DNA of 47,623 nucleotides. It comes from an uncultured Gammaproteobacteria bacterium. GTDB lineage: Bacteria > Patescibacteriota > Microgenomatia > UBA8517. Below are positions 15,185 through 35,002 of this stretch, piece by piece. The notes below the pieces were generated by a model. The model was not told where the DNA came from, made no database searches, and saw nothing but the letters and a program-made list of their open reading frames with translations. A program made the position numbers and the translations under genes. The stretch lies in contig CAYISM010000003.1 in the NCBI GenBank assembly GCA_964366085.1, forward strand, positions 1-47,623. Direction: 5' to 3'. Every line of letters begins with the position of its first letter. Positions within the stretch are counted from its first letter, which is position 1.

Positions 15185-15214
15185 AGGGTCCGACCCTTGA
15201 CAGGGTCGGACCCT
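15185..15214. repeat. REP-like palindrome pair upstream of RAYT
   Basis: AGGGTCCGACCCT-TGAC-AGGGTCGGACCCT. Confidence 0.8.
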
Positions 15215-15230
15215 AATTCTAAACTGAAAT

Positions 15231-15881
15231 ATGCCTGCTAGAAATGTCATCAAATATTACATTGAGAATGGCTTTTATCATATTTACAACAGGGGCTTTG
15301 AAAAAAGAAGAATCTTTCTAGACAATGAAGACTACGATGTTTTTACGTTTTTTCTGCAACGATCTCTTGACCAAGGCTTAAAAGTTTCATTAGATGGCCT
15401 GATCAACACACATAATATCTCTGAAGAATTAGATCTTTTATGTTATTGTTTAATGCCAAACCATTTCCACTTACTAATAAAACAGTATACTAAAGATGCT
15501 GTAACAAAACTTTTAAGAAGGGTGCTAGCTAGTTACGTTATGTATTTCAACAAAAAATACGATCGTGATGGGGGTCTTTTCCAAGGCAAACCAAGAGCGG
15601 TTCTCGTAAAAGATGAAGGCTATCTTTTACACCTCACGAGGTATATTCACCTCAACCCACTTGAACTTGATAAAGTAGAAAAGGCAGAAGATTACAAGTA
15701 CTCAAGCTACAAAGACTATTTAGGTTTGCAAAATAGGGGATGGACAAAGCCAAAAGAAATACTTAGTTTCTTCAAAACGAAACGCACGTCATTTTTAAAA
15801 GACTTTCTTTCATATCAAGAATTCGTAGAAAATTATAAGAAAAATTCAAAAGAATTATTGGGAACGCTGGTTCTTGAGTAA
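15231..15881 (+). mobile_element. REP-associated tyrosine transposase (RAYT; IS200-like HUH Y1)
   Basis: FYHIYNRG, YCLMPNHFHLL (HUH), YIHLNP and YSSY motifs; flanked by palindrome clusters. Confidence 0.88.
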
Positions 15882-15907
15882 GGACAACACTTTAGCGACG
15901 CCATTCA

Positions 15908-15952
15908 GGGTCGGACCCGGTCTAGGGTCCGACCCCCTTTCGGGTCCGACCC
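15908..15952. repeat. REP-like cluster, 3 x GGGTC(C/G)GACCC with 17-bp period
   Basis: Units start at 15908, 15925 and 15942. Confidence 0.85.
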
Positions 15953-15977
15953 TTTAAAACAAGATTCATCCCATAAC

Positions 15978-16025
15978 CTTGACTTTTATATGTGGTGGTG
16001 GTACCATTACCTTCATTAGAATTGA
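15978..16025 (+). promoter_or_regulatory. Cassette promoter block, copy 1
   Basis: TTGACT-17 nt-TACCAT. The first 25 nt and last 9 nt are identical to 33716-33763. Confidence 0.75.
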
Positions 16026-16215
16026 GAAATTTGAGGTAACTAAGCACCTTATAGTTCTTTTTTCTAATCCAGTCTCAGTTTTGCACATTCAAATTTTGCG
16101 GAAAAGTATTCTCCTTCCGAGTGGGTAGCCCCTTGGGTATGAGCCTTGGCTGGTGCCTAAAGTGCTAACCCATTCGGGAAAGCAGGCATTACGCCTATTC
16201 AATTCAAAAGGAGAT
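16017..16215 (+). ncRNA. Structured 5' leader of cassette 1
   Basis: Stem AGAATTGAGA/TCTCAGTTTT, conserved TGCAC..TTGCGGAAA motif, long hairpin 16115-16180, small hairpin AGGC/GCCT, SD AAAGGAG. Confidence 0.5.
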
Positions 16216-16220
16216 AAGAC

Positions 16221-16919
16221 ATGTCAAACCTTTCGAAGGATCAACTCAGAAAGCTGGCTCACATCAATCCCCGTATTGGCAGCGATATCAACGACGTCAT
16301 CAGGGAGATGGTGAACCGGGCCAACATCTACGGCATTCGGGTGACCTGCGTCTTCAACGAAGCGCAATTCACTGTTGAGCCGGGGATAACTGCCGAAACT
16401 GCTTACCAGTTGTGGCGAGCAGAGATGGACCGCCAAGGCCAAAATTGGAGAAAGTCCATGAAGGCCGAAGTGTCGCGTCGCGAGTCGAAAGCTCGGGAAG
16501 AACGCGCTGTTGTCCGCGGTCAGAATGTACACGCCATGCTGGAGCACGAAAAGATCCAGGTGCCGTGGTACAAGCGTTCAGCTTTCAACAAGGCTGTTCG
16601 CGCCAATTCTGCTGATGGCTACAGCGCCGCCACGATCAACTATGCTATTGCGTGGGCAGTTGCTATGCAACAGGCTATGCGCAAGGGCAAGAAGATCGCC
16701 GACGTTGCCGAAGAGCTCTCGCACGAAGTTGACTATGAAGGGATCACTGGTTTTATGTACGGCTGGGCGGTCGCCTTTCTGGCCAAATTCTGGAAACATG
16801 GCGAAAAGCTTCGTCGTTGGCACAACCTTGACACCCAGCTGGGTGATGAAGGCGAACAGGCCAACAAAAAGAAGGGCGCGACTCTCAACCCCGCACTTCT
16901 TTCCATCGGCAAGAAGTAA
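16221..16919 (+). CDS. Hypothetical protein (GC-rich, probably acquired)
   Basis: 232-aa ORF with a strong SD; visibly more GC-rich than neighbouring genes. Confidence 0.8.
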   Translation: MSNLSKDQLRKLAHINPRIGSDINDVIREMVNRANIYGIRVTCVFNEAQFTVEPGITAETAYQLWRAEMDRQGQNWRKSMKAEVSRRESKAREERAVVRGQNVHAMLEHEKIQVPWYKRSAFNKAVRANSADGYSAATINYAIAWAVAMQQAMRKGKKIADVAEELSHEVDYEGITGFMYGWAVAFLAKFWKHGEKLRRWHNLDTQLGDEGEQANKKKGATLNPALLSIGKK

Positions 16920-16941
16920 CACAATTCCGCAATTGAAGTGC

Positions 16942-16991
16942 AAAAACCTGGAGCAGATCCCTAAAAGATCATAAGCCTTCAGGTTTTTTTT
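16942..16991 (+). terminator. Terminator of cassette 1
   Basis: AAAAACCTGGAG...CTTCAGGTTTTTTTT with inner GATC/GATC hairpin. Confidence 0.7.
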
Positions 16992-17050
16992 ATTCTCAAA
17001 AAATCTTCTTCTTGCTAAATCTCCTTAGCTTCGGGTACAATTACGCTTGC

Positions 17051-17230: not shown

Positions 17231-17815
17231 ATGAAAACTGCTTCTGACCCAAGACATATCAGGCGAAGGGAAATTGTTAAAGAACTCTTTACTTACTCCT
17301 ACTCAAACCAACCAACGCCCAGTCAGGACACAAAAGAAATTCTTTCTAAAAAGGAGTCTATTGATGCAGAAATAGTTAAAGCCGCACCCGCCTGGCCGAT
17401 CGATAAACTCAATAGAATTGACCTTGCGATTTTAAGACTTGCGGTCTACGAGATGCAAAAGGCTGAGACACCTCCCAAAGTTGTAATTGACGAGGCGGTT
17501 GAGCTTGCAAAAGAATTCGGAAGTGAAAATTCCTCTTCCTTTATTAATGGGGTATTGGGTACAATTTACAAAATGAGTAAATTGACACCGGATATTAAAC
17601 CAGTAAAAGAACTCCTGGCTGACCAGCTCGGAATTGAGCAAGATGATATTGAAGAGAACTATTCGTTTATCGAGGATCTACACATGACCCCCTCGGATGT
17701 TTCTGACTTCATGGAAACCCTTGAAAAAAACGGATATGACACGTCAGCAATTAATTTATCAACGCTTGAAACATTCTCGGATTTAGAAGAAACTCTTTCC
17801 CATCGGGATCTGTAA
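17231..17815 (+). CDS. nusB: NusB fused to an acyl-carrier-protein-like domain
   Basis: DLAILRLAVYE, VVIDEAVELAKEFG and FINGVLG, followed by an acidic ~80-aa ACP-like tail. Confidence 0.85.
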   Translation: MKTASDPRHIRRREIVKELFTYSYSNQPTPSQDTKEILSKKESIDAEIVKAAPAWPIDKLNRIDLAILRLAVYEMQKAETPPKVVIDEAVELAKEFGSENSSSFINGVLGTIYKMSKLTPDIKPVKELLADQLGIEQDDIEENYSFIEDLHMTPSDVSDFMETLEKNGYDTSAINLSTLETFSDLEETLSHRDL

Positions 17816-17816
17816 A

Positions 17817-18485
17817 ATGAAGAACATACTTAAATTAAACTCCCTTTTTAATAATAAAGACCTTTTAGATCTTGCTCTCACCCATAAATCCTGGGTTAAT
17901 GAAAATCCGGGGAAGCGCGGATCAAACGAAAGGTTGGAGTTTTTGGGAGATGCGATACTTGAGTTCGTTGTTTCAAGACAGTTATACGAAAAGTTTCCGG
18001 ACAAAGAAGAAGGATATTTAACGGCACTGAGGGCTAACATAGTCAATACTGTAAATCTTGCCAAAACTGCTAAAAATATTGAACTTGGCAAGGCACTGTA
18101 CCTGTCTAAGGGGGAGGAGGATGGGGGAGGCAGGGAAAACTCATCACTTTTAGCTGATACGGTTGAAGCTGTAATTGGAGCACTTTTTTTAGACCAGGGA
18201 CTTCCCGCCAGTGAAAGTTTTATTAGTGAGAATCTGCTTTTCGATATTGAAGTCAAAACCAAAGAGCCTTTAAAAGATCCAAAAAGCAGGCTCCAGGAAT
18301 ATGTCCAGGCCAAAGGTCTCCCTACACCCAAATACAGGGTTTTTAAGGAGTCCGGTCCCGACCATGAAAAAAACTTTCAAGTAGAAGTTGTTATTGATAA
18401 TAAACCTTGGGGTTTGGGTGAAGGAAAAAGTAAGTCATTAGCCGAACAAAAGGCTGCGGAGAATGCGCTCTCAAAAGTGTTGTAA
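17817..18485 (+). CDS. rnc: Ribonuclease III
   Basis: NERLEFLGDA signature; dsRBD DPKSRLQE...GPDH. Confidence 0.97.
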   Translation: MKNILKLNSLFNNKDLLDLALTHKSWVNENPGKRGSNERLEFLGDAILEFVVSRQLYEKFPDKEEGYLTALRANIVNTVNLAKTAKNIELGKALYLSKGEEDGGGRENSSLLADTVEAVIGALFLDQGLPASESFISENLLFDIEVKTKEPLKDPKSRLQEYVQAKGLPTPKYRVFKESGPDHEKNFQVEVVIDNKPWGLGEGKSKSLAEQKAAENALSKVL

Positions 18486-23214: not shown

Positions 23215-23242
23215 CACTTTAACACACTAGTGTGTTAAAGTG
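23215..23242. repeat. Perfect 28-bp palindrome
   Basis: CACTTTAACACACT|AGTGTGTTAAAGTG. Confidence 0.85.
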
Positions 23243-23263
23243 TGAAGAGCAAAAAACTTTTCC

Positions 23264-23740
23264 TTAATAAGTCCTTAAGAAAATCTGGGTTTTGGAGGTC
23301 ACTTGAGAAGATGACGGCCCAGAAACATTCTGGGGCTTCGCCGTAATATCAAGTGTTACATAGGGCGTAATCTTGGGATCGGTTTGTATACACGCAATCG
23401 TACATGAGCTTATTGTTACATCGGTTGAAGTTAGCCTTGCAGAGCCGGAAGCGATGTAGCCTGCGCTGCCTACGTCTGAGCAAGAAAAGTAAGTAGAAAT
23501 CCCATTCTGGTCTTTATAATCTACTCTGGTTGTACTCGGACAAGAAACGCTTGTTGCATTTCTGATTTGCCTCTCCACTACTGCAATGGCGTAATCAAGG
23601 TTTTCTTTCACTTTTCCCAAAGATTCTGACTTTTTACTACCCTGCAAAGTAATTATTATCGTTTGTGAGGAAATAACAGCTAGGACAGAAAATACGGCCA
23701 AAACAACCAACATCTCAAGAAGTGTAAATCCGTTCTTCAT
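23264..23740 (-). CDS. Minor pilin (PilW-like)
   Basis: MKNG|FTLLEMLVVL prepilin motif. Confidence 0.85.
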   Translation of the reverse strand: MKNGFTLLEMLVVLAVFSVLAVISSQTIIITLQGSKKSESLGKVKENLDYAIAVVERQIRNATSVSCPSTTRVDYKDQNGISTYFSCSDVGSAGYIASGSARLTSTDVTISSCTIACIQTDPKITPYVTLDITAKPQNVSGPSSSQVTSKTQIFLRTY

Positions 23741-24207
23741 TGTGTTTTCCAATTCGTAAAAAAAGTATCAGATTTTATGTCATGTATTCCTTGTGCATCG
23801 CTCCATGTAACTTTTATATTTGCCGATACCATATCATTTAAGGAATCATAACTTATACTTACCTCTCTTAGAAAAATTCCGGTTTGTGAAATATAATCAG
23901 CGCTCGAGCACGAACTGGCAACGGCCGGCCAGGAAGGCGGGGAGGAGCTTACACACCAAGTACCTATTTTTGTAATGAAAGTTGTCCAATCAGAGTCCCT
24001 TTGTCCCCTTAACCACTCCGTAGCCTCCTGTGAGTAACGTGTGGCTAGAGTGCTATTTCTGGCAAACGAAGTATTCCTAATCGATACGGCACCCAAGCTA
24101 ACGAGGGCGACAAGGATCAAAGTAACTATTCCCAATGCCAATATTATTTCAAAAAGAGACTGTCCGTCCTCTCTGACTTTTGACTTTTGACTTTTGACTT
24201 TTATTAT
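23737..24207 (-). CDS. Minor pilin (PilV-like), apparent ATA start
   Basis: The frame extends upstream of the tracked ORF to IIKVKSQKSKVREDG|QSLFEIILALG. Confidence 0.7.
   Translation of the reverse strand: MIKVKSQKSKVREDGQSLFEIILALGIVTLILVALVSLGAVSIRNTSFARNSTLATRYSQEATEWLRGQRDSDWTTFITKIGTWCVSSSPPSWPAVASSCSSADYISQTGIFLREVSISYDSLNDMVSANIKVTWSDAQGIHDIKSDTFFTNWKTQ
24174..24201. repeat. (TGACTTT)x4 heptamer repeat in prepilin leader
   Basis: Four perfect copies. Confidence 0.9.
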
Positions 24208-24683
24208 TGTATTTCTCCTCCGCCCGTAACCGAAACTGTAATTGCGTAGTTTGCCTGAGTCAAAGTTACGACAATAGAAGCGGTTTGTCCGGCAGGAATA
24301 TTGGTTCCCTGGGCAACCGCTTTAAACAAAATAGGGTTAGGCGAAGGAGAACTAATACTTATACCCACATTCGCTAAATCAACCGTTTTTGTTGTTGTAT
24401 TTCCGTTACCGCATACTCCTTCAAGCTCGTAAGCAGTTATCGAAGCTACTCTGAAGTTATAACCTATTAAAATATCACAGCCGGACGGTTTGTCACCGGA
24501 AAGCGCGCGTGATTGGGCAATTCTCAAATCCGATCTAATTTTCCTTGCAACACTTTCAACAGACTGGCGCCTTGAAAATTCTCTAAAATTCACATAGCCG
24601 ATGGCAAACAAAATCCCGACTATCGTAATGCTTACAAGAAGCTCCACAAATGTAAAAGCTTCATTTAAATTATCATTCCGCAT
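24204..24683 (-). CDS. Minor pilin (FimT/GspH-like)
   Basis: EA|FTFVELLVSI, SDLRIAQSRALSG. Confidence 0.85.
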   Translation of the reverse strand: MRNDNLNEAFTFVELLVSITIVGILFAIGYVNFREFSRRQSVESVARKIRSDLRIAQSRALSGDKPSGCDILIGYNFRVASITAYELEGVCGNGNTTTKTVDLANVGISISSPSPNPILFKAVAQGTNIPAGQTASIVVTLTQANYAITVSVTGGGEIQ

Positions 24684-24687
24684 TAAT

Positions 24688-25167
24688 TTAGGGATTTATA
24701 ACTTTGTAATTACAGGCAACTGAGCTTCCGCAGTTACTGGTTCCCCCACAAGTTACCGTACCTGACCCTTGTTCAAGGGCCGCACAAAGTTCGTAAGTAG
24801 TAGTCGTTAATCTAACGTAAAGATAAGTTCTTGAGGGGTTTAACGGATCGCCAGGAGTAGAGGAGATATAAACATTGGTTGTTGCACAAGTTGTAGGAGT
24901 TCCGCTTCCAATAAGTTGGGACCCGACTGCCGGCAGTGATGCCGGATACACATTACAATCGGATTTGTAGATTTCAAAGCCTGATTTTATAAATTCCAGA
25001 TCAGCCTTTCTTTTGGCATCACGAGAAGATTCTCTGGCTCCTTGAATCCCAAAAATCGAAAGTCCTATCAAAATTCCCAAGATGGAAATAACCACTAAAA
25101 GTTCAATCAGGGTAAAGCCAAAATTAATGGTTAATGGTTGATGGTTAATGGTTGATTTTTTATTCAT
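24688..25167 (-). CDS. Type IV pilin (GspG-like)
   Basis: G|FTLIELLVVI, SRDAKRKADL. Confidence 0.88.
   Translation of the reverse strand: MNKKSTINHQPLTINFGFTLIELLVVISILGILIGLSIFGIQGARESSRDAKRKADLEFIKSGFEIYKSDCNVYPASLPAVGSQLIGSGTPTTCATTNVYISSTPGDPLNPSRTYLYVRLTTTTYELCAALEQGSGTVTCGGTSNCGSSVACNYKVINP
25124..25156. repeat. TT(A/G)ATGG heptamer repeat in prepilin leader
   Basis: About 4.7 copies. Confidence 0.85.
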
Positions 25168-25644
25168 TTAGATCGGGCAGGTACTACTGTAAGGTGCAGA
25201 AACTGAAACTGCCGATTTACCGTTTGAACAAACGACCCAAAATCCTGTTGTATTTTCTAGGCTCGCCCACAGTACATATTTTGTTCCCGAGGCAGAACCG
25301 GCCACACCGGATCCGTCGCTGATATAGTAATAGAAGTATGTAGGATCTTTTGGATCTTTGGGGCAAGTTGTAAGAGCCAGATCGTTACAAAGCGTAGTTG
25401 AAGCTACAGTTGCGGATGTCCTTTGAGGATAAAAGCCGTTACTCTTATTGGCATAAGCCTCTAAAGAATTTTGATATTGTTTCAGATCAGATTTTCTTTG
25501 AGTGTCTCTTGCCTGTTTTTGGCTTCCGCCAAATGATACAAGAACAATTGACGCCAAAATCCCCAAAACAGAAATAACAACCAAAAGCTCAACCAAGGTA
25601 AAACCATGGTTGATGGTTAAGCTATCTTTTTTCATTTTAATCAT
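25168..25644 (-). CDS. Type IV pilin (GspG-like)
   Basis: G|FTLVELLVVI, ARDTQRKSDL. Confidence 0.88.
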   Translation of the reverse strand: MIKMKKDSLTINHGFTLVELLVVISVLGILASIVLVSFGGSQKQARDTQRKSDLKQYQNSLEAYANKSNGFYPQRTSATVASTTLCNDLALTTCPKDPKDPTYFYYYISDGSGVAGSASGTKYVLWASLENTTGFWVVCSNGKSAVSVSAPYSSTCPI

Positions 25645-25651
25645 TAGTCAT

Positions 25652-26161
25652 TTATTGTTGGACAATATACAAACACCCTCCAAGCGTTGTATTACACCAC
25701 GATTCGGTCGTACTGTTGCATTTATCATCACTCGCATTTTCCAAACAAGCTTTTAGGGTAAAAGAGTCACCGTCTGTCTGTGCGTAGCGATAATCTCGGC
25801 TTGGCGATAGAGGATCTTTTGATAATACCGACATATATGTTTGGCTACCTGATACAAATGAGCCTCCCCAGGAACACAAAGTTACAGATGAACACGTAGA
25901 TTGTATTCCACAGCCGAGTATCTGAAAAGTAGAGTTGCTACAGGGATAGTTACCTTTATCGTTATAGTATATCCTCAAAGCGGTTTCTATATTTTTCAAG
26001 TCCGACTTCCTTTGTGCATCGCGTCCCCTCTCTCTCGCAACATTCAGATTTGCCAAAAAAAGAGTGGCAAGAATTCCAATGAGGGAAATCACCACCAAAA
26101 GCTCAACAAGGGTAAAACCCTTGTAACTGTTAACTGTTAACTGTTTACTGTTTACTGTCAT
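25652..26161 (-). CDS. Type IV pilin (GspG-like)
   Basis: G|FTLVELLVVI, GRDAQRKSDL. Confidence 0.88.
   Translation of the reverse strand: MTVNSKQLTVNSYKGFTLVELLVVISLIGILATLFLANLNVARERGRDAQRKSDLKNIETALRIYYNDKGNYPCSNSTFQILGCGIQSTCSSVTLCSWGGSFVSGSQTYMSVLSKDPLSPSRDYRYAQTDGDSFTLKACLENASDDKCNSTTESWCNTTLGGCLYIVQQ
26124..26158. repeat. T(A/T)ACTGT x5 heptamer repeat in prepilin leader
   Basis: Five copies directly after the ATG. Confidence 0.9.
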
Positions 26162-26721
26162 TCTGTTGCTTTTACGTTTGCGCTCGTTATTGAAAAATTA
26201 CAATTATAATTTCCACACGAATAAGAAACCGGATTTACGCAATTATTGTTTATACAATCCTGATCTTGTGAATTTTCAAGTCTCGCAAATAGCTGAAACT
26301 TTTGATTGGAAGATAAAACTCTGTAATAATATGTTTGGTTTTTTCCAGGATCAGCCGGAACTTCTTTAAAGTAAACTGTTTTCCCGTCTGTAAATTCAGC
26401 CGAACCCCAACTGCAAGCTGTCCCGTTTCCGACCGCTGGATCATAAGGACATCCTGCTATCGAATTGCTAAGTGAGCCGGGGTACTTACTATAGTCCGAA
26501 TAAAAAAGTTCCAGCGCTGAGGTCAATTGTTTTAAATCCGATTTTCTCTGCGCATCTCTTCCTCTCATCTGTGCGCTTTGAAATCCTCCGGTAATAAGAG
26601 TTGCCAAAATTCCTATTATGGACATAACAACCAAAAGCTCAACAAGGGTAAAGCCTCCGGCTTCACCCGAATCGTGAAGCACGAATAATGAATTATGTTT
26701 TATTCCTAATTCCTGATTCAT
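26158..26721 (-). CDS. Type IV pilin (GspG-like)
   Basis: G|FTLVELLVVM, GRDAQRKSDL. Confidence 0.88.
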   Translation of the reverse strand: MNQELGIKHNSLFVLHDSGEAGGFTLVELLVVMSIIGILATLITGGFQSAQMRGRDAQRKSDLKQLTSALELFYSDYSKYPGSLSNSIAGCPYDPAVGNGTACSWGSAEFTDGKTVYFKEVPADPGKNQTYYYRVLSSNQKFQLFARLENSQDQDCINNNCVNPVSYSCGNYNCNFSITSANVKATE

Positions 26722-27299
26722 AATTCCTGATTTTTCTTCTCCATTTCATTCTCATATTCTTCTATCGATTTATCAAGTGGGAGAGCTCCGGATGCAAGTC
26801 CAAAATTGCATATTTTTATTCCACAGGATAGTTTCCTTGCCTCTATTTTCAAATCATATTCAGCCTCATCACGCCCTTCGAGAGCCGCATATATCTGATA
26901 TTTTTTCCCGTTTGATAAGTAATAATAACTTGCACCTTTATCTTTGTCAGGATCATAAGGAATTTTAGAAAGATAGGGTAGGTAAGAAGGATCTGAAATA
27001 TCAATTAGTGAATCAATTGCCCATTCACACGCTTTAAACTCATAGGTTCCTGTAGTACTGTTAATTTCACCTCTACATGCAACAATTTTTCCGCCTTCTG
27101 ATAGGGGAAAGAAACCAAAGTCGTTTTGATATTTATTAAGAGAATCACTGATGGATCTTACATCGCTTTTTCTTTGTGCGTCCCTTGCCCTTCTTATAGA
27201 AACTCTAAGGTTAACCGAAAAGACCAAAAATACGGCAATAAGAATTATTAAAATTCCTATTATTTCCTCGTTAGTCATATTTAAAAACTTTTTTAACAT
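26718..27299 (-). CDS. Pilin-like protein with degenerate cleavage motif
   Basis: TM followed by ARDAQRKSDV, like neighbouring pilins, but no G|FxxxE. Confidence 0.75.
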   Translation of the reverse strand: MLKKFLNMTNEEIIGILIILIAVFLVFSVNLRVSIRRARDAQRKSDVRSISDSLNKYQNDFGFFPLSEGGKIVACRGEINSTTGTYEFKACEWAIDSLIDISDPSYLPYLSKIPYDPDKDKGASYYYLSNGKKYQIYAALEGRDEAEYDLKIEARKLSCGIKICNFGLASGALPLDKSIEEYENEMEKKNQEL

Positions 27300-27392
27300 A
27301 AACTCCACTTACTCGAATTTGCAATTCTCGTTAAGTGATTTTGATCCCCCAAAATGCTACTTATGATTGCAAATCAAAGTATTTTGGGTATA
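27299..27392 (+). mobile_element. ERIC-like ~94-bp double-hairpin element (putative MITE)
   Basis: TA-bounded; two hairpins around a central GATC; related copies at 35012-35104 and 22131-22189. Confidence 0.65.
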
Positions 27393-27405
27393 AAGAGTAA
27401 CTTTA

Positions 27406-28158
27406 TTACTGCCAAGGGACACACTCATTCTGTGATTGCCCACACTGTCCGTAACAGTTACTATTTTGATAGTTGGGGTCGCACTCAGGACCCGGACGGC
27501 TTGGATCCCAATTTATAGGAGTACAAATTCCACTTTTGCATCCATAAAAACCAGAACCAGGACCAGCTGTCGGAGTCGGAGTAGGTGAGGTAGACGGGTT
27601 TGGGGTTGGCGTACCTCCTCCCGGTCCGGACGTCTGGGTACCTCCACCTCCACCAGGGGTGGGGCTTGGACAAGTTAAGGACTGAGGTAAAGGAGCATTG
27701 GGACTAGCCGCAAAATAATTGTAAGCATAATTGGGGCCACATCCGCATTTGCATCCCTTCTTTACACTATCGGAGTCTTCTGTATAGTCAAGTTTGGTAA
27801 ATATTCTATACCAACGCGGGCAAGAACTGTCTTGATAGTCATAAAAGTAGGTGGACTTTGTCACCGGATCACAAGGAATTTTATTTAAATATGACTGAAG
27901 TCCGGTCCCGGGACTGCATACAACCAATTGAGGTAGGGGATAACAATCATGATCTTTCTCATATTCTTCAACTGCAATTTGAATTCTTGCTATATCGGTT
28001 TTTCTCTTAGCATCATTTGCCTTAAAAATTTGGCTTCTCAGAAAAACAATAGATATAACAATTAAAATCGAAATAATAACAACTACAATTAAGACCTCCG
28101 TAAGGGTCATGCCTTTGTTTTTTCTACTAACTAGTTTACTCAAAAAGAAATTAACCAT
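27406..28158 (-). CDS. Type IV pilin with Pro/Thr/Gly linker and Cys-rich C-terminal domain
   Basis: G|MTLTEVLIVV, ANDAKRKTDI, PTPGGGGG...PTPTP linker, Cys-rich tail. Confidence 0.85.
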   Translation of the reverse strand: MVNFFLSKLVSRKNKGMTLTEVLIVVVIISILIVISIVFLRSQIFKANDAKRKTDIARIQIAVEEYEKDHDCYPLPQLVVCSPGTGLQSYLNKIPCDPVTKSTYFYDYQDSSCPRWYRIFTKLDYTEDSDSVKKGCKCGCGPNYAYNYFAASPNAPLPQSLTCPSPTPGGGGGTQTSGPGGGTPTPNPSTSPTPTPTAGPGSGFYGCKSGICTPINWDPSRPGPECDPNYQNSNCYGQCGQSQNECVPWQ

Positions 28159-28892
28159 TTTTTCAAAGTTTCACCGAAAAAATAAACCAAGAAGAACGAA
28201 ACAACCAAATAAGGTCCGAACGCAATTTTTCGACCGAATTTAACTTTCTTCATCCATATAAGTATTATCCCCACAAACGCTCCGGTCAAGAAAGACGTGT
28301 ACGTCCAAATTAAGCTCTTGGGCCAGCCCCAAAAAGTTCCCGCAAAAATGGCGAATTTAACGTCGCCCAAACCCATTCCTTTGCCCTTGGTTAAAAGATG
28401 AATCCCCAAAAAAAATAAGGACGTTGCAAATCCGACAAAAAGATTCAAAAAGACGGATGCTGATGCTTGAATAAAAAGAAAAAAATAAGTTGACAAAAGT
28501 AAAATATAAATAAGCTCGTCCGGAATAATTTGGTTTTCTAAATCAATTACAAACACACAAATCAGCACCGAGGAAATAAGAAGCATAAAAAGTGTTAAGA
28601 AAAGTGGCGCTTTAAAAAGACCTATCGTTAAAAATATAACTCCCGTTAAGCCTTCGATAAAGGGGTATCTAACAGATATTTTCTGGGAGCAACTCCTACA
28701 TTTCCCACCCAGAATCAAATAAGAAACAAGAGGTACGTTGTCAAACCACGAAATTTGCTTTTTGCAGCTGTCGCACACCGAACGGCCCTTTACGATACTC
28801 ACTGCCCTTGGGTATCTATAGGTGTAGGCTGCTAAAAAAGACCCCACCACTAAACCTAATATTGCTAACGATAAAAAAATTAAAACCTGCAT
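28140..28892 (-). CDS. pilD: Prepilin peptidase
   Basis: GSFL, RS.C..C, GKC..C, IDLE..IIPD, GMGLGDVK and IAFGPYL motifs. Confidence 0.95.
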   Translation of the reverse strand: MQVLIFLSLAILGLVVGSFLAAYTYRYPRAVSIVKGRSVCDSCKKQISWFDNVPLVSYLILGGKCRSCSQKISVRYPFIEGLTGVIFLTIGLFKAPLFLTLFMLLISSVLICVFVIDLENQIIPDELIYILLLSTYFFLFIQASASVFLNLFVGFATSLFFLGIHLLTKGKGMGLGDVKFAIFAGTFWGWPKSLIWTYTSFLTGAFVGIILIWMKKVKFGRKIAFGPYLVVSFFLVYFFGETLKKWLISF

Positions 28893-29485
28893 TACTCAGG
28901 AATACAAACGTAGCATTTATTAGTGGTCCAGTCCGCACCAGCAGCGTCACAAGCCGATGTTGCAGTCCTCGAACCATCTGAAAGGCTTATAGTATAAACC
29001 TTATCATCCGCTATAGCTTTATCCCTTGTAGATTTGGCTGCAGGAATAAAACAAGTATATACTGACTCTGACGCGCCTAGTTTCTTACCAGCCATAAGCT
29101 TTTTTTCATCAACAGTGGCTTTTATAAAATCTCTATTTCGAAACTCGGTCTTTAATTCAAGTCCTGTCAGTAAAAGACCATCCGTACTGCAGTCAGCTCC
29201 GCAAATGCCAACCGCCTGACTTCCTGCACTCGCAAACCCAAAAGCTGCTTCATTGGTTGTCGGAGTACCAAACGTCACCCAAGGAAACTCGCTGTGAGAT
29301 GCGAAATACCTATCTATTGCTGAAATAATCTGACTGCCATCTGCCTTATAATGAGTATCTCGTGCCCGGTTTGACTGTTCGATTGGATTAATTGCAGAAA
29401 TAACTATCAAGGCAATTGTACCCAAAAGCGCAATAACAATCAAAAGCTCGACCAGTGTGAAACCTTTTTTAATTTTTATTGTCAT
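28892..29485 (-). CDS. Type IV pilin (candidate major pilin)
   Basis: KKG|FTLVELLIVI...AINP; strong SD GGAGGAGGTG upstream. Confidence 0.85.
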   Translation of the reverse strand: MTIKIKKGFTLVELLIVIALLGTIALIVISAINPIEQSNRARDTHYKADGSQIISAIDRYFASHSEFPWVTFGTPTTNEAAFGFASAGSQAVGICGADCSTDGLLLTGLELKTEFRNRDFIKATVDEKKLMAGKKLGASESVYTCFIPAAKSTRDKAIADDKVYTISLSDGSRTATSACDAAGADWTTNKCYVCIPE

Positions 29486-31829: not shown

Positions 31830-33584
31830 TTATTCCTGGGCAACTCTGAGTACTTCTTCAATACTTGTTACTCCTTCAACCACTTTTAAGTAACCGTCCT
31901 GTTTTAAAGAAATCATCCCTTCTTCTTTCGCCAATTTTTCTATTTCACTGGCGGGGGACCTTTGAAGTATCAATTTTGCAATCTTCTCACTCACCGGCAA
32001 GGACTCAAAAATTCCAACCCTGCCAAAATAACCTGAATTATTACATTCGGGGTCTCCTTGTCCTTTAAAAAACTTCATCGGCTTTCCCTCGGGCCATAAA
32101 GGACCTAAAATGTTTTTTGTTTCTTCTACAATTTTAGGATCGGGTCGATATTCGATCTTACATTTATCGTGAATTTTCCTTACAACTCTTTGGGCCACAA
32201 TTGCGGTTATTGAAGAAGCCAAAAGATAAGGCTCGGCTCCCATATCTAGTAAGCGCGGTAGTGCACCTGATGCGTCATTTGTGTGAAGAGTAGAAAAAAC
32301 CAAATGTCCGGTTAGGGAAGCTTGTATGGCCAAATCGGCGGTTTCCTGGTCTCTAATTTCTCCTACTAAGATAATATTCGGATCTTGTCTTAAAAAGGCT
32401 CTCAAACCTGATGCAAAAGTAAGCCCGACTCCCGGATTAATCTGTACCTGATTTACGCCTGGTATTTTATACTCGATTGGATCTTCAAGTGTAACTATAT
32501 TTACCCGGGGAAGGTTGATACGGGAAATTATTGAATAGAGCGTAGTTGTTTTTCCCGAACCCGTGGGACCGCAAATAAGAATTATTCCGTGAGGGCGCAA
32601 TATCGCGTCTTCGAGATTTTTAAGTCCTCTTCCTCTTAATCCAAGTTCGATAAGTTCCGGAACACCTCCGGTCTTTTTCAAAAGCCGCATCACAATTTTC
32701 TCTCCCCAGGTAGTAGGAAGGGAGGAGATACGCAAATCTACCTCCTCATTTGCATTCTTAAAATTAAACCTGCCATCTTGGGGGATTCTTTTCTCATCTA
32801 TTTTCATTCCGGATTGTATCTTGATTCTTGAAATAAGTGCTTCGTGAAGTCCTTTGGGGATGGTAAGCTTTTCCTGAAGAATTCCGTCGATTCTATAACG
32901 AACACGGGTTGTCTTCTCCTGAGGCTCGATATGAACATCGCTGGCTCTTGCCCGGACAGCAAACTCCAAAATGTGATTAACAATCTCCGCAATTCTTTCT
33001 TCTCTGATAAAACCGGTCTTTGCGATATCAAGCGTTGTTTTAATATCTTCCGGAACAACCTCTTTCATGGCCTCCGTAACTTCTTTAGAAAGTGAAGTTG
33101 AATACCGCGTTGAAATAAACTCTTCCACTTGAGATGGTACTCCCGCTTGCGGTTTTAATCTGTAACCTGTCTTTTGTTCTATGAACTCAAGTGCCGTAAG
33201 ATCCAGTGGGTCCGCCATAGCTAGAGCTAATTGTTTTAGAGTCGTATCGATAGAAACAGGAAAGACCTTAAATCTTTCTGCAACGTCTTGGGGCAAAAGG
33301 GCAACAGCTTCAGGAGATACTGGAGTGCTGGTAAGATCTACAAAGGGAACGTTATACAAAGTTGCTTTTGCCTTTGTTAAAGCAACTTCGGAAACCAACT
33401 CTTTCTCCTTTAGAATTTCTTCCTGGGTTTTGCCCGTTTGAATTTCAAACATCTTCACTTCCTGTGCCTTATCGGCAGTCAAAACCCCCTGAGACAGCAG
33501 GACATCTGCTAGGTTGTTAAGTTCACCATTTGTAACCTGCGAGTTGACAGGCTGAGGCACTTTGACTGTAGGTTGAGCAGGCAT
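31830..33584 (-). CDS. pilB: Pilus assembly ATPase PilB (GspE family)
   Basis: ASDVHIEP, PQDGR, GPTGSGKTTTLY, LRQDP and TGHLVFSTLHTND motifs. Confidence 0.95.
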   Translation of the reverse strand: MPAQPTVKVPQPVNSQVTNGELNNLADVLLSQGVLTADKAQEVKMFEIQTGKTQEEILKEKELVSEVALTKAKATLYNVPFVDLTSTPVSPEAVALLPQDVAERFKVFPVSIDTTLKQLALAMADPLDLTALEFIEQKTGYRLKPQAGVPSQVEEFISTRYSTSLSKEVTEAMKEVVPEDIKTTLDIAKTGFIREERIAEIVNHILEFAVRARASDVHIEPQEKTTRVRYRIDGILQEKLTIPKGLHEALISRIKIQSGMKIDEKRIPQDGRFNFKNANEEVDLRISSLPTTWGEKIVMRLLKKTGGVPELIELGLRGRGLKNLEDAILRPHGIILICGPTGSGKTTTLYSIISRINLPRVNIVTLEDPIEYKIPGVNQVQINPGVGLTFASGLRAFLRQDPNIILVGEIRDQETADLAIQASLTGHLVFSTLHTNDASGALPRLLDMGAEPYLLASSITAIVAQRVVRKIHDKCKIEYRPDPKIVEETKNILGPLWPEGKPMKFFKGQGDPECNNSGYFGRVGIFESLPVSEKIAKLILQRSPASEIEKLAKEEGMISLKQDGYLKVVEGVTSIEEVLRVAQE

Positions 33585-33715
33585 ATTTAAAAATTTACAA
33601 TTACCAATTACCAATTTTCAATGAAAATTAGATTTTGAGATTAGAAAATTATTATTTCCATTATGCGATAGAAAATGTCTTCAATCAAGTAATACTCATT
33701 ATCAAATCCTATAGA

Positions 33716-33763
33716 CTTGACTTTTATATGTGGTGGTGGTGGTAGCATCATGGCTAGAATTGA
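33716..33763 (+). promoter_or_regulatory. Cassette promoter block, copy 2
   Basis: CTTGACTTTTATATGTGGTGGTGGT-N14-TAGAATTGA, as at 15978. Confidence 0.7.
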
Positions 33764-33871
33764 AGCAGGATCAATTTTTAAATCGCGGCCTATAGCTTCT
33801 GTTTCAATGCACGTTCGCATTCTTGCGGAAACAACCAATCTTAGTTGCCTTCGGGCAGAAAGGAAAATCTC

Positions 33872-34141
33872 ATGGCATTCTTAGGTTGGATCTCTGCGGC
33901 GATATTGAGTACGTTACTCAACGGCTTTGCTCTCAAAGTACTCTGGAGCCGGTTCATGGTGGAGACCTTTAGTCTCCGCCCCCTGACCATCCCTCAGGCA
34001 CTAGGCCTAGCCATGGTGGTAAGCTATCTAACCAACCACTATCACAAAGATGACAGATCCCCCGGTGTAATCATCGCTACAGCCTTCGTCCAACCCTTGT
34101 TCGCATTGCTAGTGGGCTGGATCATACAGCTATTCATGTAA
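33872..34141 (+). CDS. Small membrane protein (89 aa, about 3 TM)
   Basis: SD GAAAGGA after a TGCC-TTCG-GGCA hairpin; hydrophobic segments; more GC-rich than host genes. Confidence 0.75.
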   Translation: MAFLGWISAAILSTLLNGFALKVLWSRFMVETFSLRPLTIPQALGLAMVVSYLTNHYHKDDRSPGVIIATAFVQPLFALLVGWIIQLFM

Positions 34142-34184: not shown

Positions 34185-34232
34185 AAAAGCACCGAAAGGG
34201 TGAAAATCACAATAACCCTCCGGTGCTTTTTT
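34185..34232 (+). terminator. Terminator of cassette 2
   Basis: AAAAGCACCG...CGGTGCTTTTTT with inner AGGG/CCCT and GTGA/TCAC stems. Confidence 0.75.
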
Positions 34233-34244
34233 ATGCTTAAGCCA

Positions 34245-34290
34245 AAGGTCGGACCTTGTGTGGGGTCGGACCCGACTGCGGGTCCGACCC
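34245..34290. repeat. REP-like cluster, 3 units with 17-bp period
   Basis: AGGTCGGACCT (34246), GGGTCGGACCC (34263), GGGTCCGACCC (34280). Confidence 0.85.
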
Positions 34291-34345
34291 TGATTAATTT
34301 GCTTTCCAGACGCTTAATATCTTAATATCTTTATATCCTAACTCT

Positions 34346-35002
34346 ATGCATGCATATTTAATCGTTGGCCAAAACGAAGAGGTAAATAAAAATAAAGCCC
34401 AAGAACTCGCTGAAAAACTTGAGGCAAAGATACTTGAGTTTCCGCTTTCAAAAATTGAGGACGTTAGAAATCTATCTGCTTTTACAAAACTTAAACTCAG
34501 TCAGCCGACTGCCTTACTACTATATAGTATCGAAGATGCAACCGAGGAGGCACTAAATGCCTTCTTAAAAAATCTCGAGGAGCCACAAAAAAATCTTTAC
34601 TATATTCTTACCGCACAATCTTCAAAAAGTGTACTTTCCACAATTGTTTCCAGATGCGAAGTAATAAAAACAGTCAGCAGTCTGCCTACGCAGTCAGGTA
34701 AACAGTCAGCAGTCTGCCTACGCAGTCAGGTAAACAGTCAGGAATCTGAAAACTTTTTGAAGATGCAGATTGGAGAAAAATTCGCACACGTCCAAAGTAT
34801 AAAAGAAAGAGATATAGCCCTAGGTTTTGTTGAAAATTTAATTTACTTTCTCCACGAAAAATTACACAGCGAAACTAACTTCAGTCACACCTTCAAACTT
34901 TTAACCGAAGCGGTTTCAACAAGAAACGCTCTTAAGAAAAACGGAAACGTATCCTTACAGTTAATCAATTTTATTGTAAAAACCGCTTCCGTGACAGCCT
35001 AA
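34346..35002 (+). CDS. holB: DNA polymerase III delta'-like protein (short)
   Basis: HAYLIVG, EALNAFLKNLEEP and TIVSRC motifs. Confidence 0.8.
   Translation: MHAYLIVGQNEEVNKNKAQELAEKLEAKILEFPLSKIEDVRNLSAFTKLKLSQPTALLLYSIEDATEEALNAFLKNLEEPQKNLYYILTAQSSKSVLSTIVSRCEVIKTVSSLPTQSGKQSAVCLRSQVNSQESENFLKMQIGEKFAHVQSIKERDIALGFVENLIYFLHEKLHSETNFSHTFKLLTEAVSTRNALKKNGNVSLQLINFIVKTASVTA
34668..34741 (+). repeat. 32-nt tandem repeat (x2.3) inside holB
   Basis: AAACAGTCAGCAGTCTGCCTACGCAGTCAGGT twice, plus a partial copy. Confidence 0.9.

Follow-up and report, generated by a model that had tools for sequence, protein, structure and literature searches.

In ribosomal RNA (rRNA) operons, leader and trailer pair across the product in a helix of 25-40 bp that contains an RNase III site, and, according to a model described in the available part of the source, boxA tethers the leader to RNA polymerase until the trailer emerges (PMC10250234). 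The boxA element, for which the accessible sections of a second study give the consensus GYTCTTTAANA, can also regulate protein genes (Baniulyte et al., 2017; PMC5725501). This study focuses on two gene cassettes in a 47,623-nucleotide (nt) stretch of DNA (contig CAYISM010000003.1 of assembly GCA_964366085.1, forward strand; hereafter the window), in which complementary leader and trailer sequences bracket a protein-coding open reading frame (ORF). The window comes from the Woesebacteria-type genome of a groundwater bacterium of the candidate phyla radiation (CPR), assembled as 556,640 bases in 28 contigs and 91.78% complete, and public records with the same promoter motif carry the labels Candidatus Woesebacteria or Patescibacteria. 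The arrangement is probably, though far from certainly, an RNA-level frame in the style of an rRNA (rrn) operon, in which Nus factors would load at a boxA and a closing helix would be cut by RNase III or protect the transcript ends.

The pairing of leader and trailer across the whole ORF of cassette 1 had been proposed in an earlier, sequence-only reading of the window, and it is present as proposed. The leader box (TTTTGCACATTCAAATTTTGCGGAA) complements the trailer box (TTCCGCAATTGAAGTGCAAAA; positions in Table 1) over 8+5+8 bp, 21 bp in all, with two bulges, A and ATT, on the leader side. It also exceeds the shuffled controls with which that reading had suggested comparing it: when the whole leader was scored against the trailer for strict local complementarity, the observed value exceeded that of all 1000 dinucleotide-shuffled trailers, and none of 2000 shuffles attained it in windows restricted to 44 nt and 75 nt around the box. 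Strict scoring was adopted for these comparisons, the duplexes obtained by unconstrained RNAduplex and by lenient local alignment being long but spurious, with z close to 0. An extended terminal inverted repeat in cassette 1 (~90 nt, leader against terminator) was seen under lenient scoring and lost under strict scoring. ViennaRNA, applied to the presumed 983-nt transcript of cassette 1, placed the long-range stem in both the minimum free energy (MFE) and the centroid fold, with a z of -6.5 and with 0/20 shuffles folding equally well. In cassette 2, TTCTTGCGGA pairs with TTCGCAAGAA through eight Watson-Crick pairs, one G.U and one A-U, and this helix likewise lies within the MFE and centroid folds of the 482-nt transcript. 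The differences between the two cassettes had been read as preserving the pairing, which holds for the inner helix; the outer helix (TGCAC/GTGCA) is absent from cassette 2.

Both cassettes are members of a patchily distributed family. A 23-nt promoter motif occurs exactly twice in the genome to which the window belongs and, with 0-3 mismatches, in 8/125 genomes of the same taxonomic family; across the order it is found in 9/139 genomes and 6/91 genera. It matched nine stretches in genome_contigs and 26 in metagenome_contigs, and promoter plus structured leader hairpin recur in other contigs of four metagenome runs. Scans of viral_contigs with three motifs (promoter, trailer box, and -10 plus start of the leader) gave no match for any of them, nor did a comparison of the cassette leader with 50,697 phage records. 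The 51 motif matches collapse to 30 distinct leaders and, once L048 is dropped as a near-duplicate of L045, to the 29 considered here under L numbers. Their common anatomy opens with CCTATArnC, followed by TTGACT, a spacer ending in three to five GGT repeats and TACCAT, which together form a near-invariant, promoter-like site. A three-tier 5' hairpin with a U-run comes next, then the leader box (TTGCACnTTnAn...TTGCGGA), and in many cassettes an anti-Shine-Dalgarno (anti-SD) sequence (TTCTCCTT) and a hairpin of ~60 nt between the leader box and the Shine-Dalgarno (SD) sequence. The SD, AAAGGAGA, precedes every cargo ORF. On the 3' side, the cargo is followed by the trailer box (TCCGCAAtTGAAGTGCAAAAA), a terminator hairpin with T-run and often TTGGAAAA. 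From TTGACT to the -10 element, cassettes have 3 to 5 GGT repeats and hence spacers of 17, 20 or 23 nt; the variation is seen at 15993-16001 and 33731-33742 of the window and in L009, L011, L014, L015, L024, L026, L034 and L041. Repeat number could tune or phase-vary promoter strength; alternatively, the -35 element may be dispensable given the extended -10, TGG-TACCAT.

Complementarity between the boxes recurs across this family. In L001, L003, L004, L005, L006, L009, L015, L034, L035 and L036, strict scoring puts the best match between leader and trailer at the leader box on one side and 0-35 nt downstream of the stop codon on the other; the trailer box of L011 overlaps its stop codon. With restricted windows, no more than 20 of 2000 shuffles equalled the score in 9 of 15 testable cassettes, and no more than 100 did so in 11. 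The four that miss the latter threshold include L032, whose pairing falls outside the restricted window and whose score in the whole-leader test was reached by 14/1000 shuffles; the restricted test is weak for L013 and L011 and not significant for L007. Cognate pairs also surpass non-cognate ones: among 23 cassettes (L048, the polycistronic L026 and L041, and incomplete units being left out), cognate leaders and trailers had a mean score of 19.63 versus 17.21 for non-cognate combinations, the observed mean being reached in 5/20000 label permutations. Several variants retain complementarity with altered sequences. L032 has the boxA GTTCTTTAACA and pairs ATCTTGTTCTTT with AAAGAACAAGAT and ATGTGGAAAGTT with AACTTTCCACAT, AACATGTGGAAAGTT likewise having its complement. 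In L024, AGATAGAGT is complementary to ACTCTATCT, in L028, TTCTCTTGC to GCAAGAGAA, and in L036, TTTCTTGC-ACTTT to its trailer, and the inner helix is lengthened by different sequences in L003 and L006 (GGATT/AATCC and GGGTTT/AAACCC). L012 has a 7-bp stem plus a wobble found by hand inspection only. L041 has two genes, and its trailer box stands after the second ORF, not after the first.

The leader box resembles the boxA elements of rRNA leaders in the same lineage. In the taxonomic family, 80/125 genomes have a 16S gene; of the 30 loci listed, 28 were used (L076 and L083 were left out for having less than 300 nt upstream) and 27 had a recognizable 3' end. With the pattern G[CT][AT]C[ACT]TT[AG]A[ACT]A and at most one substitution, a boxA-like motif was found in 26/27 of these 16S leaders and in 19/29 cassette leaders; the window's own genome has a background of 0.52 matches per kb per strand. 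The GCAC-type boxA of the cassettes occurs in 6 of the 27 16S operons, e.g., GCACTTTAACA and GCACATTAAAA; the 16S leader of G059, a relative that bears a cassette, has a weak boxA-like match only. In 14/27 operons the boxA overlaps the 5' strand of the best leader-trailer complement, and in one more it lies at most 15 nt away. The sequence-only reading had noted a loose resemblance of the leader to boxA, and the fit is closer than that, since GCACATTCAAA matches the boxA of the family's 16S leaders. Its analogy with rRNA processing stalks also gains from these operons, because a stem that begins at boxA copies an RNA design native to the lineage. Together with L032, the 16S operons identify the leader box as the boxA of this lineage and a trailer complementary to boxA as its native rRNA design. 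NusB, RNase III, NusA and NusG are all encoded in the window's own genome. A boxA-like match in contig C7 fell inside a coding region and was discarded as chance. Elsewhere in the window, a perfect 13-bp palindrome, CACTTTAACACAC-TAG-GTGTGTTAAAGTG (23215-23243), has a boxA-like 5' arm (GCACTTTAACA); it has three copies in the genome (one in the window and two in C17, near 4705 and 5933), two of them with identical upstream flanks.

The remaining parts of the leader are also structured. In single-sequence folds, equivalents of the 5' hairpin fold alike in 17/18 cassettes (z of -0.4 to -4.4), and RNAalifold on a MAFFT alignment of this hairpin returned no consensus structure. For the structured leader hairpin, RNAalifold with 12 cassettes predicted 23 pairs, 13 of which are marked by compensatory double changes. 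The anti-SD, as TTCTCCTT or TCTCCTT, was read in 8 of the 12 leaders that carry this hairpin module. Closed by anti-SD and SD, the ~60-nt hairpin of cassette 1 (16109-16214) looks like a candidate for an undescribed translational control element. Rfam gave nothing for the cassette, either at its gathering threshold or when E values up to 10 were allowed, its matches within the window being two tRNAs only.

The cargos enclosed by this frame are varied, encoding proteins of 44-384 amino acids (aa), several of them small membrane proteins of 44-52 aa, and their GC content exceeds that of the flanks in 24/26 cassettes. Most are ORFans: among 24 proteins scanned, Pfam matches above the cut-off were limited to Tad4 (ORF 1 of cassette 1 and L015) and DUF2807 (L012), and PHROGs matched five. 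Comparisons between loci show how the units move. L001 and L015 contain the same cassette at different chromosomal sites, with 81% identity over 1017 nt and different terminators, and their homology runs from 15 nt upstream of the -35 element to the end of the trailer box. Conversely, L003 and L015 occupy one site, with flanks 96-97% identical, and hold unrelated leader-plus-cargo units with break points at the promoter and the trailer box, while L015 and L041 have leader and trailer in common and differ in cargo and site. From these three comparisons, the frames are portable and cargos are exchanged, with junctions inside the conserved blocks. Such exchange is expected from ordinary recombination and by itself is no explanation of the complementarity of leader and trailer.

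The rrn-style frame would operate as follows. A strong, nearly invariant promoter would fire, and the nascent RNA would fold its 5' hairpin and then expose the boxA-type leader box. NusB/S10, together with NusA and NusG, would be loaded onto RNA polymerase by the boxA, so that a foreign, GC-richer gene would be transcribed fast and with resistance to Rho. After the cargo, right before the terminator, the trailer box would emerge and pair with the leader box, boxA included, to form a bipartite stem of ~21 bp closing the whole message beside the terminator hairpin. This closing helix would be an RNase III-type processing site, a clamp protecting the ends, or both. The start and end points of the transcript are presumed here, as are Nus loading and cleavage or stabilization, and a role of the stem in processing or stabilization is suggested by analogy with rRNA.

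A number of observations weigh against this reading. No RNA run was found to contain this stretch of DNA. The pairing itself would occlude boxA. At 6-10 bp each, interrupted by internal loops, the helices are short compared with the 25-40 bp described for rRNA in the available part of PMC10250234, which makes cleavage by RNase III uncertain. No boxA-like match was found in 10/29 cassette leaders, and the leader of cassette 2 does not fit the boxA pattern even with one substitution allowed. Strict scoring revealed no convincing stem in L007, L008, L012, L014 and L031, and the helix that the sequence-only reading had described in cassette 2 exists but taken alone is not above chance, its score being reached by 480/1000 shuffles. 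Covariation across further copies, put forward in the same reading as a check, gave a divided picture. Variant classes stay complementary, but they number only about five or six, and the two boxes hardly vary within the canonical subfamily, which leaves the core pairs uninformative on structure. Mismatches in cassettes comprise 15 G.U and 16 A.C, counted over alignments that run past the true helices, and thus carry no plus-strand RNA signature, whereas the rRNA leader-trailer helices of the same family have 81 G.U versus 27 A.C. This missing G.U bias is the main weakness of an RNA-level interpretation. Finally, neither 16S nor Rho was found in the window's own assembly, 91.78% complete; the rRNA comparison was therefore made on relatives, and Rho is present in 58/60 other genomes of the family that were searched.

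A rival reading is a closed RNA loop independent of Nus factors, in which the fold-back would stabilize the mRNA or gate translation and the likeness to boxA would be incidental. Precedents for such a fold-back reportedly include the 3' fbi element of hok mRNA and the pairing of the 3' with the 5' untranslated region (UTR) of icaR. The stem appears in the predicted folds of both window cassettes, pairing of anti-SD with SD around a covarying hairpin points to translational control, the small membrane proteins recur among the cargos, and some of the ten leaders without a boxA-like match still pair (L028, L045). Against it, 19/29 leaders fit the rRNA boxA of the family, whose background is 0.52 per kb, the layout of boxA within a helix is native to 14/27 of the 16S operons, and the box of L032 has switched to the GTTC type and is still of boxA type; moreover, cargos reach 384 aa and are mostly soluble ORFans rather than toxins. 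A Nus-independent loop is held to be unlikely, if not negligibly so. The trailer strand has a more active part in another proposal, a portable expression shell for CPR genomes, in which boxA would proof the message against Rho, and the anti-boxA trailer would, on emerging, strip boxA of NusB/S10, reset the polymerase just ahead of the terminator and insulate neighboring genes; promoter and trailer would serve as homology arms through which cargos could pass between sites and between strains. This elaboration of the rrn-style frame is speculative and rather doubtful. If true, it would amount to integron-like gene capture and expression that needs no integrase, with a design taken from the rRNA operon.

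The arms may instead be inverted repeats that act as DNA, whether as ends or subterminal sites of a mobile cassette, as a single-stranded substrate of HUH/Y1 enzymes, or as an invertible switch that turns SD plus ORF around against a fixed promoter. Such readings fit the anatomy poorly. The conserved blocks extend ~100 nt past the left arm (promoter and hairpin) and ~50 nt past the right arm (terminator and TTGGAAAA), so that the arms are not termini; they differ in sequence between subfamilies and yet stay complementary, which a sequence-specific recombinase would not tolerate; and they are invariably found within the transcribed part, with the same orientation to the promoter, the trailer arm abutting the terminator. 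On the same grounds, the recombination of folded single-stranded DNA considered in the sequence-only reading is a poor fit, and nothing points to the circularization that it also raised. No starts or ends and no strand-changing or circular joints were found in four metagenome runs, where contigs alone were covered, which drop rare variants. What speaks for mobile DNA is the patchy occurrence (9/139 genomes, 6/91 genera), the same cassette at different sites (L001/L015) and different cargos at one site (L003/L015), homology that breaks at promoter and trailer box, mismatches without strand bias, and a suggestive association with genes of Y1/RAYT type (RAYT, REP-associated tyrosine transposase), which lie within 1.5-2 kb of 3 of the ~28 unique cassettes (cassette 1, L012 and L013); the GGGTCSGACCC repeats that belong to the RAYT are, however, unrelated to the boxes. 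A DNA-level function is on balance improbable. Still less credence is given to complementarity without function, with the blocks as homology arms for cargo swapping and the trailer as a one-time inverted copy of the leader box. Invariant core boxes in the canonical subfamily, the reshuffling of leaders, cargos and terminators with junctions at the boxes, and the lack of G.U bias speak for it, but independent box variants stay complementary (L032, L024, L028/L045, L036 and L003/L006), and cognate pairs outscore non-cognate ones (5/20000 permutations). The placing of the trailer box, always last before the terminator and behind the last ORF in L041, follows transcript logic.

Table 1. Features of the two cassettes, in window positions.
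Feature	Positions	Strand	Description or basis
Cassette 1, upstream conserved block and promoter-like site	15968..16007	+	ATCCCATAACC, then TTGACT (15979-15984)
Cassette 1, 5' leader hairpin (three-tier stem, then U-rich run)	16015..16068	+	Inverted repeat; MFE and centroid folds
Cassette 1, leader box (5' strand of stem)	16079..16103	+	boxA-like GCACATTCAAA at 16083-16093
Cassette 1, anti-SD TTCTCCTT	16109..16116	+	Pairs with SD 16207-16214 in the MFE fold
Cassette 1, structured leader hairpin (GUGGGUAGCCCCUUGGGUAU...GCCUAAAGUGCUAACCCAU)	16118..16178	+	Predicted by RNAalifold, 12 cassettes
Cassette 1, SD AAAGGAGA	16207..16214	+	Direct sequence reading
Cargo ORF 1, 232 aa	16221..16919	+	ORF list; GC 0.54 vs 0.40 in flanks
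Cassette 1, trailer box (3' strand of stem)	16925..16945	+	Directly 5' of terminator
Cassette 1, intrinsic-terminator-like hairpin and T-run	16942..16996	+	Inverted repeat; MFE fold
Cassette 2, upstream block and promoter-like site	33706..33748	+	(GGT)4, 20-nt spacer to TAGCAT
Cassette 2, 5' leader hairpin	33759..33808	+	MFE and centroid folds
Cassette 2, leader box (TGCACGTTCGCATTCTTGCGGAA)	33808..33830	+	boxA part degenerate; helix strand 33820-33829
Cargo ORF 2, 89-aa membrane protein	33872..34141	+	phrog_2169 'membrane protein, moron', E 2.7e-16
Cassette 2, trailer strand TTCGCAAGAA	34170..34179	+	Pairs with leader strand in fold
Cassette 2, terminator-like hairpin and T-run	34186..34232	+	Predicted fold

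The site upstream of cassette 1 is a putative promoter by its consensus: a 17-nt spacer ending in (GGT)3 separates TTGACT from TACCAT (16002-16007), and the TGG before the latter is extended -10-like. A 58-nt direct repeat links this block to cassette 2. ORF 1 has a C-terminal Tad4 domain (Pfam PF25186, E 1.2e-23, residues 122-223), also matches phrog_9822, and over residues 127-232 shares 44-47% identity with hypothetical Bacillus phage proteins; the trailer box follows its stop codon as it does in related cassettes. ORF 2 has in addition a Pfam match to DUF389 under the cut-off. The neighbors of cassette 1 are recG (named from reading its translation), rpmF, nusB and rnc, and Pfam confirms L32, NusB (17231-17815) and RNase III (17817-18485). 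The adjacency of nusB and rnc, to which the sequence-only reading had drawn attention, is thus real, but it is ascribed to chance, since nusB, rnc, rpmF and recG are all missing from the available flanks of the other cassette loci. The NusB ORF encodes 194 aa, of which residues 34-114 only match the Pfam family, and its C-terminus of ~80 acidic residues matched no family at E up to 0.001. On the other side, cassette 1 adjoins a gene for a Y1 (IS200-like, RAYT-type) transposase (15231-15881) that is bracketed by palindromic GGGTCSGACCC repeats at 15185-15214 and 15907-15953; the genome has 19 palindromes of this type and four RAYT-like genes. Another cluster of these repeats comes right after cassette 2 (34245-34291), whose neighbors, as named from their translations, are genes for a pilB-like ATPase, a holB-like protein and gyrB. 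The holB-like ORF (34346-35002) contains three tandem 32-nt repeats (34657-34752). A 63-nt repeat is present in six copies on the minus strand at 23669-29464, and its reverse complements appear to code for a hydrophobic N-terminus like that of type IV pilins; the repeat table suggests a cluster of paralogous pilin-like genes adjoining the pilB-like ATPase gene (31830-33614).

If the rrn-style reading is true, boxA and the Nus complex, a leader-trailer helix and RNase III, a machinery commonly regarded as reserved for rRNA, are reused in ultra-small bacteria as a standard wrapper for accessory genes. This would provide a concrete, testable model for the expression and insulation of foreign genes in CPR genomes as well as a compact natural design for an expression cassette. 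The signature of promoter, boxA and trailer box would then also locate recently acquired cargo, possibly related to phages or to counter-defense, in uncultivated lineages. Literature searches at the level of listings and abstracts gave no description of comparable frames, either on protein genes or within the CPR.

Among known systems, the rrn leader and spacer (boxB-boxA-boxC, with the Nus-factor antitermination complex) as presented in the accessible part of PMC10250234 are matched in the order of promoter, hairpin, boxA and a 5' strand whose 3' partner comes after the product, and the boxA variant of the cassettes is that of the 16S leaders in the family. Unlike rrn, the cassette helix is bipartite, with ~6-10 bp twice, abuts an intrinsic terminator and lacks the G.U signature, while the leader adds a hairpin closed by anti-SD and SD. 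The units are single-gene (two genes in L041), GC-richer than their surroundings, patchy and swappable, and they enclose protein genes rather than rRNA. Although the cassette would thus function in the manner of an rrn frame, it is no rrn operon, because its product is an SD-led ORF of 44-384 aa. The cassettes resemble suhB, rpsJ and other protein genes regulated through boxA in having this element within the 5' UTR (Baniulyte et al., 2017; PMC5725501), and their boxes GCACTTTAACT and GTTCTTTAACA differ little from the consensus GYTCTTTAANA given there. The genes treated in the available sections of that study differ from the cassettes in having boxA less than 50 nt from the start codon and repressed translation; those sections describe no trailer complement or closing helix, and the genes are resident, translation-related and not portable (PMC5725501). 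If the present reading is true, the biology of Nus factors and boxA reaches well beyond the few resident genes known.

Likenesses to mobile and phage-borne units are of another kind. Phage morons are promoter-ORF-terminator units of deviant composition found in prophages. The cassettes resemble them as autonomous single genes with their own promoter and terminator and deviant GC, and some cargos match phage families (the phrog_2169 'moron' membrane protein, Tad4, phrog_9822), but they sit among host housekeeping genes, not in a prophage, and have one conserved frame with paired UTRs and boxA. The attC site of integrons has both arms in one site of 57-141 bp 3' of the ORF and folds as single-stranded DNA for IntI. 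Like the present cassettes, those of integrons have single-gene cargos, diverse and mostly ORFan, in a frame that stays constant; both involve imperfect inverted repeats, and in both the cargo at a site can differ between strains. Unlike attC, the arms of cassette 1 lie ~820 bp apart and bracket the ORF, and the cassettes carry their own promoter and terminator. They also differ from transposons bounded by terminal inverted repeats, from miniature inverted-repeat transposable elements and from mobile insertion cassettes, in that the arms are not at the ends of the unit, the left arm lying ~100 nt inside. Systems of the hok/sok type consist of a small toxin ORF, an overlapping reading frame and a cis-antisense RNA. 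Their mRNA has only the pairing of 5' and 3' regions in common with the cassettes, whose cargos are varied and reach 384 aa.

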